From Gammaproteobacteria bacterium (GTDB lineage: Bacteria > Pseudomonadota > Gammaproteobacteria > Ga0077554 > Ga007554): 64,000 bases of DNA. Positions 3,330 through 45,804 of the stretch are shown here, piece by piece. A program made the position numbers and the translations under genes. The notes under the pieces were generated by a model, which was not told where the DNA came from, made no database searches, and saw nothing but the letters and a program-made list of their open reading frames with translations. The stretch covers positions 2,709 through 66,708 of the forward strand of contig JAHFRW010000009.1 of NCBI GenBank assembly GCA_023266055.1. The letters run 5' to 3'. Position 1 is the first letter of the stretch, and the number at the start of each line of letters is the position of its first letter.

Positions 3330-4321
3330 TGACGCGGCGAATCAACTTTATCAAGTAGCGCCTTTAATACATCATCACTATCATGACCTTCTATTTCGAG
3401 ATCAGGATCCAGTGTCAACCGATGCCGCAACGCGGCGGGAGCAATAACTTTCACATCATCCGGCGTCACAAAATCACGCCCCTGCAATAATGCAGCAGCA
3501 CGCGCCGCCCGAATCAAGGCAATCCCACCTCTGGGCCCGGCACCGACAGCAATACCTGGCCATTCGCGTGTAGCACGTACTATATCGAGAGCATAATCAC
3601 GCACCCTTTCATCCACACGCAATAACGAGACCAGGCGCTGCATTGCCTGAACGGTTGCAGGGCTCACGATGGTCGATACATTTTCAACATTAAGCGCATC
3701 ACCGATCCGGTCAGACGTTACCTGATTCAACATCAATCGTTCCTCATCACGGGAAGGATATCCGATTAAAACCTTCAACAAAAAACGATCAAGCTGCGCT
3801 TCAGGAAGAGGGTAAGTACCTTCCTGTTCAATAGGGTTTTGCGTGGCAAGCGTCATGAAAGGCAGACTCAACGCATAACCCTGCCCCTCAATGGTCACCT
3901 GATTCTCCTGCATTACTTCCAGCAAAGCAGCCTGGGTTTTCGCAGGCGCGCGATTGACTTCATCAGCCAGTAACAGATTGGTAAAAACCGGCCCTTTACG
4001 AACATGAAACTGCTCACTCTGAAGATTATACATGGCATGCCCGGTAATATCAGACGGCATCAAATCCGGGGTAAACTGAATACGTGAAAAATTGCCATTA
4101 AAGGTTTTGGCAATCGCCCGCACCAGCAAGGTTTTTCCCAAACCCGGCACACCTTCGATTAGCACATGTCCCGCCGCAAACAACGCAATCAGCACTTGAT
4201 CCACAATCTCAACCTGGCCAATAACCGCCTTGCCAATTTCGGCACGCATACGCTGCACAATGGTGTGGGCTTCCATTATTTTTTCCTGCGGAATTCCAGT
4301 GCTCACGAAGGGTTCACTCAC
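3326..4321 (-). CDS. MoxR-family AAA+ ATPase
   Basis: Walker A GVPGLGKT; Walker B LLADEVNRAP; length of about 330 aa typical of MoxR. The true start may be the internal MEAHT. Confidence 0.9.
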   Translation of the reverse strand: MSEPFVSTGIPQEKIMEAHTIVQRMRAEIGKAVIGQVEIVDQVLIALFAAGHVLIEGVPGLGKTLLVRAIAKTFNGNFSRIQFTPDLMPSDITGHAMYNLQSEQFHVRKGPVFTNLLLADEVNRAPAKTQAALLEVMQENQVTIEGQGYALSLPFMTLATQNPIEQEGTYPLPEAQLDRFLLKVLIGYPSRDEERLMLNQVTSDRIGDALNVENVSTIVSPATVQAMQRLVSLLRVDERVRDYALDIVRATREWPGIAVGAGPRGGIALIRAARAAALLQGRDFVTPDDVKVIAPAALRHRLTLDPDLEIEGHDSDDVLKALLDKVDSPRQ

Positions 4322-15580: not shown

Positions 15581-15729
15581 ACCTGTGCAAACCCTACCGC
15601 TAACCGCTATTTATAACACCCTGCAAATATGGCAGAATGCTTGGTTGATCGCGGCAGAGCGGCCAAGGCTTGAACTTGCCGCTTTCGGCCCCATCTAAGC
15701 AATTGTGTGTTTAACCTGTGGAGTTTTGA

Positions 15730-16620
15730 ATGAAGCGCATCCTGTTATTTTTGGCAACCAACATTGCAGTACTGGTGATATTGAGCATTTCCATGCGACT
15801 GCTGGGCATCGAAGGCATCCTTGACAAACAAGGCGTTGATTTAAATATGAATTCTCTGTTGATTTATGCAGCCATCATCGGCATGAGTGGCTCATTTATT
15901 TCGCTGGCAATATCCAAATGGACCGCCAAACGCATGATGGGTGCGCGGGTCATTGAACAACCCGCCAATGCCACTGAAAAATGGCTGGTGGATACGGTAC
16001 GCCGTCAGGCAGAAAAAGCCGGCATCGGCATGCCCGAGGTTGCCATTTTCGACTCACCCGATGTCAACGCCTTTGCCACGGGCATGCGCCGTAATAACGC
16101 CCTGGTGGCCGTCAGCACCGGATTATTGCGCGCCATGGACCAGGATGAAGCCGAAGCGGTGCTGGCACATGAAGTGAGCCACATCGCCAATGGTGACATG
16201 ATTACCCTGGCCCTGATTCAGGGCGTGGTAAATACTTTTGTAATCGTACTATCTCGCGTAATTGGCCATTTTGTAGACCGCGTGATATTCAAAACCGAAC
16301 GGGGTCATGGCCCTGCTTTCTGGGTCACGGCCATTGTTGCGGAATTGGTGCTGGGAGTGCTAGCCAGCATCATCGTAATGTGGTTCAGCCGTCGCCGCGA
16401 ATTCCGTGCCGATGCAGGTGGCGCCAGCCTGGCCAGCCGTGACAAAATGATTGCGGCGCTTGAGCGTTTGAAACAGGGCGTAAACCAGCCTCATCTGCCC
16501 GATCAAATGGCCGCGCTTGGCATTTCGGGCGGCATTGGACATGGCCTCAAACGCCTGTTTATGACCCACCCGCCTCTGGAAGAGCGGATTGCCGCACTGC
16601 GTGCACAGCAACGCCGTTAA
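15730..16620 (+). CDS. htpX: Protease HtpX (M48 zinc metalloprotease)
   Basis: [10 protein letters not shown] zinc motif; four TM segments; 296 aa; strong N-terminal similarity to HtpX. Confidence 0.9.
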
Positions 16621-44459: not shown

Positions 44460-44537
44460 CCCTCACCACCCTTTACTTTATATGGATAATTGTCAGACGG
44501 CTTATGCGCTCTGATCCACACGCTTTTTTGGTACACC

Positions 44538-45191
44538 ATGCTCAATCCCCTTTACCGACGTGCCATCTTTACAACAGGCGCCCCCACAGTGGCCTGTTTA
44601 CCCCTCGACAGCGGCTATGAAGTCGCTTTTGCCGGTCGTTCAAATGCCGGAAAATCCAGCGCTATCAATAGTATAACAAACCAGAAAACATTGGCGCGTG
44701 TCAGCAAGACCCCCGGCCGCACCCAACATATCAATTTCTTTGAGCTGGATCCCGAGCGCCGCCTGGTAGATCTGCCGGGTTACGGCTACGCCAAAGTGGC
44801 GCATAGCGTCAAGGAACAGTGGCAGCAAACCTTAACCGTCTACCTCGATACCCGCCAATCACTGCGCGGGCTGGTGATCGTCATGGATAGTCGGCACCCA
44901 CTGACATCTTTCGACCAGCACATGCTGGATGCCTGCCAGCACGCACGCTTACCAACCCATATTTTACTGACCAAAGCTGACAAACTCAGCAAAGGTGCGG
45001 CAGGTGCCGTTCTGCAACAGGTCCGACGCGCCCTCGCTGAGCGTTACCGTGCGGAGGACGCCCCTCTACCCACAGTGCAACTGTTTTCAGCATTACGCAA
45101 CATCGGCATTGAAGACGCGCACCACACACTGGATCAGTGGTTCAATCTGAAGACAACCATGGGCCCTGACACCGAACATCCACAAAAGTGA
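44538..45191 (+). CDS. engB: Ribosome biogenesis GTPase EngB/YihA
   Basis: [17 protein letters not shown] (G1), DLPGYGYA (G3) and TKADK (G4) motifs. Confidence 0.85.
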
Positions 45192-45200
45192 TTGATTTAA

Positions 45201-45312
45201 AATAAAAAAGCCCGGCATCCAAAAGGGGGAAGGATGCCGGGTTATAAGATACCCGGCTTGGGGAAACCGGGTATTAGGGTTTCTGCCCCCGGGAGGGAGA
45301 AGGGGCAGAACA
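45201..45312 (-). ncRNA. Candidate small RNA or structured terminator element, copy 1: three hairpins with C-rich loops ending in an intrinsic terminator
   Basis: Minus strand: ctgcccc[UCUCCCUCCC]ggggcag; tacccgg[UUUCCCCAA]gccgggta; gcccggcatcc[UUCCCCCUUUU]ggatgccgggc followed by UUUUUUAUUUU. Confidence 0.4.
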
Positions 45313-45426
45313 GCGCGAAAACATCGCAGCATACACTTAAGACGCTACGCTTCCCGAAAAGTTCACCGAATATTTCAACGCTTTTTCTGCCAGGGCCAAC
45401 CCGCTTCAATCAGTCCACGATAGGCA

Positions 45427-45540
45427 TAAAAAAACCCCGACATCCGAAAAGGGGGAAGGAGGTCGGGGAAAGAGTACCCGGCTTGGGGAAACCGGGTACA
45501 TAGGGGTTTCCGTCCCGGGAGGGAGTGGGACGGACAAGTG
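45427..45540 (-). ncRNA. Candidate small RNA or structured terminator element, copy 2 (tandem paralog with compensatory stem changes)
   Basis: Same three-hairpin architecture. Hairpin 1 and hairpin 3 stems differ from copy 1 at paired positions (ccgtccc/gggacgg versus ctgcccc/ggggcag). Hairpin 2 is identical. Confidence 0.4.
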
Positions 45541-45804
45541 TGAAAACCACACTCTCCCTACTTAGTGGGGATGACACAGATAAAGTTCAAGGGCTTGGCA
45601 GTAAAACCTGCGTCCTGCTCCAGCCCGAAAAGAGCACCATGCCTGATCAACCATGGTAAAATAAGGTGAAACTTCCACCAAACGGGCACCGTGACCTCGT
45701 GAATACCCCGGCGGGTGTCGCCACTCCTGCAAAACCCTGCCAGACAATGTCAGGGCAAATGTGCCTGAATTATATCCAGAAGCTCAACACGCCTGCAGCC
45801 ATGG

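Follow-up and report, generated by a model that had tools for sequence, protein, structure and literature searches.

C-rich-loop base-pairing small RNAs (sRNAs) are a known kind of bacterial RNA. The sX13 RNA has three C-rich loops, and repression by it needs C-rich motifs together with G-rich motifs near start codons (PMC3771888). The loops of the CcsR, or cuckoo, RNAs have been described as anti-Shine-Dalgarno (anti-SD; PMC8034643), and the CU-rich sRNAs of Burkholderia are predicted to cover ribosome-binding sites (RBSs; PMC5688073). Transcription of ErsA depends on sigma-22/AlgU (PMC8395346) and that of the CcsR RNAs on RpoHI/HII (PMC8034643), so stress-sigma control is typical of the C-rich-loop kind. 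Several of these genes also have a characteristic place in the genome. The ersA gene sits in the slot between polA and engB (PMC8575079), and spf, which encodes Spot 42, lies in the literature between polA and yihA/engB. The sX13 description states that sX13 always adjoins polA, likens its locus to the Spot 42 and alpha-r7 loci, and asks whether the polA locus elsewhere also encodes C-rich-loop sRNAs (PMC3771888). Here we describe a tandem pair of such elements between engB and a VOC-family gene in a 64,000-nt stretch of a gammaproteobacterial contig (JAHFRW010000009.1 of assembly GCA_023266055.1, positions 2,709 to 66,708), hereafter the window, whose own numbering is used throughout. We refer to the element that adjoins engB as copy A and to its upstream sibling as copy B.

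The pair belongs to a widespread sRNA family that is absent from Rfam and is of a known kind, namely C-rich-loop base-pairing sRNAs at the polA-engB slot. Our preferred explanation, to which we assign a probability of about 0.72, is that copies A and B are two independently transcribed sibling sRNA genes with stress-sigma promoters and with C-rich loops that pair with G-rich RBSs. Its parts differ in strength. It is highly probable that the elements are sRNA genes, while the pairing mechanism and the sigma-factor assignments are probable to a lesser degree.

Both copies are strongly structured on the minus strand. The predicted folds have energies of -53.6 kcal/mol for copy A (z=-6.7) and -51.1 kcal/mol for copy B (z=-5.8), and for neither copy was any of 200 shuffles as good. 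Each unit is about 125-130 nt long and forms four hairpins, stem-loop 0 (SL0) to SL3 (Table 1). The first-pass annotation, made from the letters of the sequence alone, had described three hairpins in units of about 110 nt that ended at 45545. All three hairpins fold, but the small 5' hairpin SL0 had been overlooked, the units are longer than stated, and copy B extends to about 45556, with its promoter reaching 45591. Other details held: pairwise alignment gives the same 80% identity between the copies, compensatory changes preserve the 5' C-rich hairpin (CUGCCCC/GGGGCAG versus CCGUCCC/GGGACGG), the terminator stem of the second copy has a single mismatch, and the U-runs CUUUUUUAUUUU and UUUUUUUAUG follow the terminator stems.

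The hairpins differ in how far they are shared between the copies. The 24-nt middle hairpin, TACCCGGTTTCCCCAAGCCGGGTA, is the same in both, and no further site for it was found in the 64 kb even with three mismatches allowed (chance expectation 0). SL3 has the form of a Rho-independent terminator in both copies, with stems of 10 bp and 11 bp followed by U6AU4 and U7, and these U-runs occur on the minus strand only. A consensus terminator scan listed neither, which we attribute to its loop limit of 8 nt, as the loops here measure 11-12 nt. SL1, SL2 and SL3 all carry C-rich loops, which read CUCCCUCCC, CCCC and UUCCCCCUUUU, respectively.

Relatives of the pair were gathered via the exact 18-nt core of the SL2 hairpin; the related loci fetched in this way are given L-numbers below. 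An exact search for this core in metagenome contigs gave at least 120 contigs, and among the matches listed roughly 60% share the hairpin plan of the pair but differ in their stems. A stricter pattern, with CCTCC separated from the core by 2-32 nt, retrieved 77 species-representative genomes. Named carriers are Thiohalophilus, Thiohalobacter, Thiogranum, Ca. Tenderia, Thiohalomonadales, Woeseiaceae and Competibacterales, and there are many unnamed gammaproteobacterial metagenome-assembled genomes besides. Three of the 77 genomes (matches in Herbihabitans, Ciceribacter and Bryobacteraceae) were judged to be chance hits.

When RNAalifold was run on 78 relatives aligned with MAFFT alone, it recovered SL2 and the base of SL3 only, since the arms of SL1 and SL3 stood in different registers in that alignment. 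The four-helix structure was therefore written by hand on an alignment of eight sequences and realigned by Infernal. The resulting covariance model, R1, was built entirely from other species and used no sequence from the window. On the 64 kb, R1 found copy B (45430-45554, minus strand, 117.7 bits, E=1e-27) and copy A (45204-45331, minus strand, 115.3 bits, E=4e-27), with no third match at E<=10. A search near the pair for a third, degenerate copy with the filters switched off gave nothing above 12.5 bits. R1 also made 168 matches at E<0.01 in the fetched loci and matched 74 of the 77 genome loci, a count that includes one borderline locus, L144. At least 73 species and many metagenome contigs carry the family, with one to three copies per lineage, either in tandem or a few kb apart.

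The two copies represent distinct types. In the upstream B type, SL1 is CCGUCCC...GGGACGG, whereas in the downstream A type it is CUGUUCUG(C/U)CC.... Three relatives whose EngB is 72-81% identical to that of the window (L138, L192 and L197) carry orthologues of both copies in the same order, so that, judged by these sequences, the window pair is not a recent private duplication. Single B-type copies were found in L154, L195, L167, L171, L174 and L193.

Other arrangements occur elsewhere in the family. In two loci (L013:8553-8661, minus strand; L060:4294-4411, plus strand), a third sRNA-like unit, divergent from the others, separates the tandem pair from engB and scores 22-25 bits with R1, and a similar unit was seen downstream of the pair in L184 by sequence inspection. 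This third unit has its own GAACTT-N16-TCATA motif, and its first and last hairpin loops are C-rich while the middle one is not. Three tandem family copies share one intergenic region in L028 (4890-4998, 5134-5241, 5460-5566) and in L035 (4682-4790, 4929-5036, 5256-5362), with scores from 53 down to 28 bits. Short two-hairpin variants were found at L016:139-219 and L034:7847-7912 (both minus strand), where a CCGGUUUCCCCAAGCCGG hairpin followed directly by a U-run forms the terminator; the L016 variant scores 45.2 bits with Rfam anti-hemB. Finally, in the cultured Thiohalophilus thiocyanatoxydans DSM 16326 (L124:1303-3701), two family copies (1945-2070 and 3573-3701) flank an open reading frame (ORF) of 478 aa with a CxxCH motif, and the copy at 1945-2070 begins one base past the engB stop (1944).

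The structure is conserved by covariation throughout the family. In a model-based alignment of 101 sequences, 92.0% of pair cells are paired, compared with 73.9% after shuffling, and none of 500 shuffles reached this value. Double-sided changes were seen in 30 of the 33 pairs, the covariation score was 0.463 against 0.150, and sliding the partners by one to three columns lowered pairing to 32-51%. All four helices covary, SL0 included: family helix 1 (SL0) is 92.4% paired with double changes in five of five pairs, helix 2 (SL1) is 93.4% paired with eight of eight pairs covarying, and helix 4 (SL3) is 89.7% paired with ten of ten. A check with the 13 closest sequences, aligned by MAFFT alone, gave 91.4% versus 85.4% paired and 13 versus 6.8 covarying pairs, with slid controls at 29-54%. 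Copies that were found by the model alone also contain pairing-keeping variants of SL2, namely CUGG/CCAG in L197 and U-A for U-G in L138, and both of these compensatory variants sit in the B copies.

The same alignment fixes the strand. G-U and U-G pairs number 273 against 44 A-C and C-A pairs, so the RNA is read from the minus strand of the window, and R1 gave 12.5 bits on the opposite strand with filters off compared with 115-118 bits on the minus strand. The C-rich loops noticed at the outset extend to the 101 sequences (52-99% C): C makes up 99% of the SL2 loop and 52-53% of the SL1 and SL3 loops, where G does not exceed 10%. Many family members carry (C)ACCUCCCU or AUUCCUCCAAC in the SL1 loop or in the SL1-SL2 linker, which resembles the anti-SD end of 16S rRNA.

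We assign the family to the polA -> sRNA <- engB slot because of the genes on its two sides. In 78 of 88 loci, or 78 of the 83 that were testable, an EngB homologue (47-81% identical) directly adjoins the 3' side of the sRNA in convergent orientation, and the C-terminus of PolA is encoded upstream on the same strand in 63 of the 72 loci with enough flank. The gap between the sRNA and engB has a median of 37.5 nt. In some loci the two overlap, as in L195 and L154, where the sRNA 3' end runs into engB (gaps of -20 and -6 nt). An apparent gyrB lies upstream in these same two loci, as read from its C-terminal translation only. In the window, the engB side of an ErsA-type slot is present, with 8-13 nt to the stop and 16 nt to the end of the EngB alignment. 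On the polA side we found the VOC gene and a class-V aminotransferase gene instead, and a tblastn search of the whole window found no polA. In the closest relatives, L138 and L192, polA is still present upstream, and the replacement of polA by the VOC and aminotransferase genes indicates a local rearrangement in the window. VOC homologues are too widespread for this gene to be used as a locus anchor. The comparisons support the idea in the first-pass annotation of minus-strand regulatory sRNAs with C-rich, anti-SD-like loops and terminators of their own, but the annotation overlooked both this slot, which is that of ErsA, Spot 42 and sX13, and the promoters.

Each unit is preceded by a stress-sigma-type promoter motif of its own. 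The motif before copy B reads CCCTTGAA-N15-CCCCACTA, a strict regular-expression match. All nine B-type relatives scored have CTTGA(A/G)-N14-15-CCC(C/G)AT ending 10 nt ahead of the RNA start, with hexamers that are kept and spacers that vary freely between species. We take this B-type motif, including that of copy B, to be the proteobacterial sigma-32 consensus. The motif before copy A ends 6 nt ahead of the RNA model start, and the A copies of L138, L192 and L197 have GAACTT-N16-GTCT(C/G/T)A at the same distance. This A-type motif corresponds to the RpoE/AlgU consensus. The split between A and B promoters is kept in all three of these relatives. The two assignments are distinct, since the B promoters of L138 and L192 retain the sigma-32 elements but have a broken sigma-E -35 element (GAAGTT and GAATTT).

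These motifs are far more frequent before family members than elsewhere. A correctly placed sigma-E-type motif was found in 38 of 99 family members, compared with 0.19% of random sites, and a sigma-32-type motif in 9 of 99, compared with 0.015%. On both strands of the 64 kb, the strict sigma-32 pattern has two sites, one before copy B and the other 31 nt upstream of htpX. The latter is a classic heat-shock gene, and its sigma-32 site overlaps a sigma-E-like pattern, GAACTT-N16-TCTAA. A consensus promoter scan found no sigma-70-like site between 44800 and 46300. Besides the promoters, the minus strand contains a 15-nt direct repeat, GGTGCTCTTTTCGGG at 45624-45638 and GGTGAACTTTTCGGG at 45353-45367. 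The second site contains the -35 element of the copy A sigma-E motif, and the first, 33 nt upstream of the copy B promoter, may be a decayed duplicate or due to chance; the repeat was not seen in L138, L192 or L197.

Table 1. Coordinates of the two sRNA elements, their promoter motifs and other features of the window.
Feature	Position	Strand	Sequence or evidence
sRNA gene, copy A (downstream sibling, adjoins engB)	45199..45331	-	Predicted start ~45331 to U-run 45209-45199
Copy A SL0	45313..45328	-	Small 5' hairpin (UGCG...CGCG); model alignment; family helix 1
Copy A SL1	45281..45310	-	UUCUGCCCC / loop UUCUCCCUCCCG / GGGGCAGAA; C-rich, anti-SD-like loop
Copy A SL2	45250..45273	-	UACCCGGUUU-CCCC-AAGCCGGGUA; identical in copy B
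Copy A SL3, intrinsic terminator	45199..45241	-	CCCGGCAUCC / loop UUCCCCCUUUU / GGAUGCCGGG + CUUUUUUAUUUU
sRNA gene, copy B (upstream sibling)	45428..45556	-	Covariance-model match and fold
Copy B SL0	45552-45538	-	
Copy B SL1	45534-45509	-	
Copy B SL2	45498-45475	-	
Copy B SL3	45468-45435	-	U-run 45434-45428
Sigma-32 (RpoH)-type promoter of copy B	45563..45591	-	CTTGAA 45591-45586, 15-nt spacer, CCCCACTA 45570-45563
Sigma-E (RpoE/AlgU)-type promoter of copy A	45338..45364	-	GAACTT 45364-45359, 16-nt spacer, TCTTA 45342-45338
engB/yihA, ribosome-biogenesis GTPase	44490..45191	+	TIGR03598, 227.9 bits; convergent with the sRNAs; stop codon 45189-45191
VOC-family gene, 133 aa	46206-45805	-	PF00903; 250 nt upstream of the elements
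Weak terminator-like hairpin	45665-45679	-	GGTGGAAGTTTCACC then TTATTTTACC; 126 nt 3' of VOC stop
Sigma-32 promoter of htpX	15669-15698	+	CTTGAA-N14-CCCCATCTAA; ORF 15730-16620, NF003965, 439 bits

The engB ORF in Table 1 is listed from a TTG codon, and its homologues align from about residue 17-22, so the true start is probably further downstream. The weak hairpin at 45665-45679 may end the VOC/aminotransferase transcript ahead of the sRNA genes.

Under the preferred explanation, sigma-32, the heat-shock sigma factor, would drive copy B, and sigma-E, that of envelope stress, would drive copy A, and each transcript would end at the intrinsic terminator of its own unit. The C-rich loops would then pair with G-rich, Shine-Dalgarno-like sites at the translation-initiation regions of messenger RNAs (mRNAs), block ribosome binding and lower the synthesis of the target proteins. 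This anti-SD mechanism is put forward by analogy with sX13, for which it has been demonstrated by experiment, and with the CcsR/cuckoo RNAs and the Burkholderia CU-rich sRNAs, for which it has been proposed. Since copies A and B share their loop sequences and differ in their promoters, the simplest reading is that one target set receives two inputs, so that a single seed repertoire would be switched on by two different stress signals.

Several points weigh against this explanation. That the units are transcribed, where the RNAs begin and end and which sigma factors they depend on are all predictions. The alignment of 101 sequences was made to fit model R1, and the invariance of SL2 is partly a matter of ascertainment, since the search itself used the exact 18-nt SL2 core. 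Of the 99 family members, 54 fall outside the promoter patterns, and the L013 type is ambiguous between sigma-E and sigma-32; many of the unmatched members are near-matches that the patterns missed, or are likewise ambiguous. The target prediction proposed in the first-pass annotation proved uninformative, as loop duplexes scanned for in 54 crudely called start regions of the window were not enriched relative to intragenic controls (p=0.63). In the minimum free energy fold, the CCCC of SL2 is a tight 4-nt loop with weak U-A/U-G closing pairs, which is small for a seed. ErsA is reported to use a U-rich single-stranded region and not its C-rich loops (PMC8575079), and by analogy the seed may be in another part of the RNA, such as the U-rich SL2-SL3 linker.

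Some weight attaches to the idea that the minus-strand sRNAs act mainly by binding a protein, which SL2 would titrate, or in cis as antisense RNAs on the 3' end of engB mRNA by way of the shared terminator region. The stem and loop of SL2 are unusually conserved, being identical in the two copies and present as an exact 18-mer in at least 73 species, which would suit an element recognized by a protein or through its structure better than it would a seed. The convergent abutment on engB is kept in nearly all testable loci, and the known seed of ErsA is not in its C-rich loops (PMC8575079). Part of the SL2 conservation, however, comes from the 18-mer search, and conservation of the engB locus holds for Spot 42 and ErsA too. 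We know of no reported link between either of these RNAs and engB. The SL1 and SL3 loops are moreover conserved in sequence on stems that covary, a pattern that marks the pairing seeds of sX13-type RNAs. We therefore regard a main role in protein binding or cis antisense as unlikely.

It is much less likely still that the elements are not independent genes and derive from the 3' untranslated region (UTR) of the VOC operon, an alternative raised in the first-pass annotation. They do share a strand with the VOC gene, which lies 250 nt upstream of them, a sigma-70-like promoter was not found, and the look-alike CcsR RNAs are 3'-UTR-derived (PMC8034643). Against this, a conserved alternative-sigma motif stands at a fixed distance before each unit, and a terminator-like hairpin follows the VOC gene. 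The upstream gene also varies, being polA in most relatives, apparently gyrB in L154 and L195 and the VOC gene only here, while the units, their promoter motifs and the neighboring engB stay the same. Copy B moreover has its own terminator, so copy A needs a start of its own in any case.

Nor do we think that the units are likely to be structural elements without a role in trans, either as tandem bidirectional terminators for engB and the VOC gene or as dispersed repeats of the repetitive extragenic palindromic (REP) or miniature inverted-repeat transposable element (MITE) kind. The units are tandem GC-rich hairpins, SL3 of copy A lies about 8-19 nt from the engB stop codon, and the overlap with engB in L195 and L154 means that the hairpin may terminate engB too. 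Yet covariation reaches well beyond the terminator to SL0, SL1 and SL2, the C-rich loop sequences and promoter motifs are conserved as well, and the sequence after the hairpin on the plus strand, UUAUAAG, makes a poor U-tract. The REP alternative of the first-pass annotation was set aside on distribution: there are two copies in the 64 kb and one to three in relatives, always at the engB locus and never dispersed, across at least 73 species. The remaining possibility, a plus-strand GGA/G-rich RNA of the RsmZ/CsrB type that sequesters CsrA/RsmA, can be dismissed, for although the loops read GGGAGGGAG, GGGG and AAAAGGGGGAAGG on that strand and it also folds well (z=-5.7 and -4.2), the 273 G-U/U-G pairs against 44 A-C/C-A pairs mean that many pairs would be broken there, R1 scores it at only 12.5 bits, it has neither a U-run nor a promoter motif, no Rfam CsrB or RsmX/Y/Z model matched even at E<=10, and the RNA would be placed in the engB 3' UTR.

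Having weighed these alternatives against two independently transcribed sibling sRNA genes, we compared the pair with described RNA families. Rfam 15 gave no family at the gathering score on the whole window or on 20 related loci, so by the curators' own threshold the window RNAs lie outside every curated family. The Rfam scan suggested in the first-pass annotation therefore yielded sub-threshold matches only, to ar14 (33 bits for copy A, no match listed for copy B; gathering score 58.8), sX13 (29.1 and 25.0 bits for copies A and B; 50), anti-hemB (27.6 and 21.9 bits; 49.5), Pseudomon-1/ErsA (23.9 and 18.9 bits; 50) and CcsR1 (15.7 and 19.5 bits; 65.3), with weaker ones to Scr3202, 6C and others. 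The top sub-threshold matches are all C-rich-loop sRNAs.

Pseudomonas aeruginosa ErsA (RF01719) resembles copy A in its promoter, since its AlgU/sigma-22 promoter (PMC8395346) is like the GAACTT-N16-TCTTA motif. The 3' half of its Rfam consensus, two C-rich-loop hairpins and a U-run, aligns to SL2 and SL3 of the window RNAs. Its 5' half is unaligned, and the copy A match spans model positions 34-108 only. ErsA is furthermore a single gene, unlike the two genes here, one of which has a sigma-32-type promoter, and its seed lies in a U-rich single-stranded domain between its SL1 and SL2 (PMC8575079). The best relative for this model, L042, scores 30.1 bits, under the gathering score of 50.

The sX13 RNA of Xanthomonadaceae (RF02232) has three stable stems with apical C-rich loops, as do the window RNAs, and shares with them the middle loop UCCCCAA. 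Its sub-threshold alignment to the window is full-length, and its best relative (L021, 36.3 bits) is again under the gathering score of 50. The sX13 gene lies directly 3' of polA, which is the case for 63 of 72 relatives but not for the window, where polA is lacking. It is reported from Xanthomonadaceae only and as a single copy, compared with two in the window. Its description has sX13 accumulating under stress, calls it constitutive and Hfq-independent, and mentions no sigma-E or sigma-32 promoter (PMC3771888).

The anti-hemB RNA, or ncS04 (RF02837), of Burkholderia and other beta-proteobacteria has three hairpins ending in a terminator, like the window RNAs, and is a 105-nt expressed sRNA in B. 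cenocepacia (PMC5688073). Its SL1 is nearly the same as that of the window RNAs (CCCCGC-uUCuCCUCCCUG-GCGGG, with a CCUCCC loop), whereas its middle loop is U-rich where theirs is CCCC. It is the most consistent Rfam model across the relatives (26-52 bits), of which L063 alone exceeds the gathering score (52.1 versus 49.5). Anti-hemB has been described upstream of hemB, while the window pair is flanked by engB and the VOC gene and the carriers of its family are Gammaproteobacteria.

CcsR1-4/cuckoo (RF02791) and ar14 (RF02344) of alpha-proteobacteria are tandem homologous sRNAs with C-rich anti-SD loops, as in the window, and ar14 has the highest Rfam score for copy A. The CcsR RNAs have a heat-shock-type RpoHI/HII promoter and are stress-induced (PMC8034643), which recalls the sigma-32-type motif of copy B. 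Their units consist of two hairpins with an exact CCUCCUCCC motif, where the window loop reads CUCCCUCCC. RNase E cuts them out of the 3' UTR of a DUF1127 gene, and they share one promoter (PMC8034643), whereas each window unit has its own terminator and promoter motif and lies at a different locus.

Spot 42 (spf) of Enterobacterales and Vibrionales sits in the same polA-yihA/engB slot, is about 110 nt long and ends in a terminator; on the E. coli map it is, we take it, likewise convergent with engB. Only the locus is common, as the Spot_42 Rfam model gave no match to the window even at E<=10. The seeds of Spot 42 are U-rich and single-stranded, and the RNA is under repression by the cAMP receptor protein with cAMP, not driven by a stress sigma factor.

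The window RNAs thus share their architecture with anti-hemB, sX13 and ErsA and their locus with ErsA, Spot 42 and, via polA, sX13; judged by its motifs, their promoter class is shared with ErsA and CcsR. Common descent with anti-hemB, sX13 and ErsA is plausible. A broader scenario, which we put forward only tentatively and consider rather doubtful as a whole, is that these three and the window family stem from one ancient sRNA gene anchored at engB/polA, of which Spot 42 would be a diverged member or a replacement. A duplication in the window lineage would then have been followed by subfunctionalization into sigma-32 and sigma-E promoters, and the near-universal convergent abutment on engB may point to a functional link with this ribosome-biogenesis GTPase, by way of a common terminator or of its antisense control during stress.

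These results describe a well-supported sRNA family with four covarying helices in mostly uncultured sulfur-oxidizing Gammaproteobacteria, abundant in sediment metagenomes, that current annotation overlooks. They reveal no new kind of mechanism. The family does bridge ErsA, sX13 and anti-hemB, which have so far been treated separately, and shows that a wide range of Proteobacteria have a C-rich-loop sRNA in the polA-engB slot, a finding relevant to the persistence and divergence of sRNA genes at a fixed genomic position. The conserved sigma-32-type and sigma-E-type promoters on near-identical siblings predict that different stress signals are integrated here. If the single-origin scenario is true, two stress pathways would converge on one set of anti-SD seeds.

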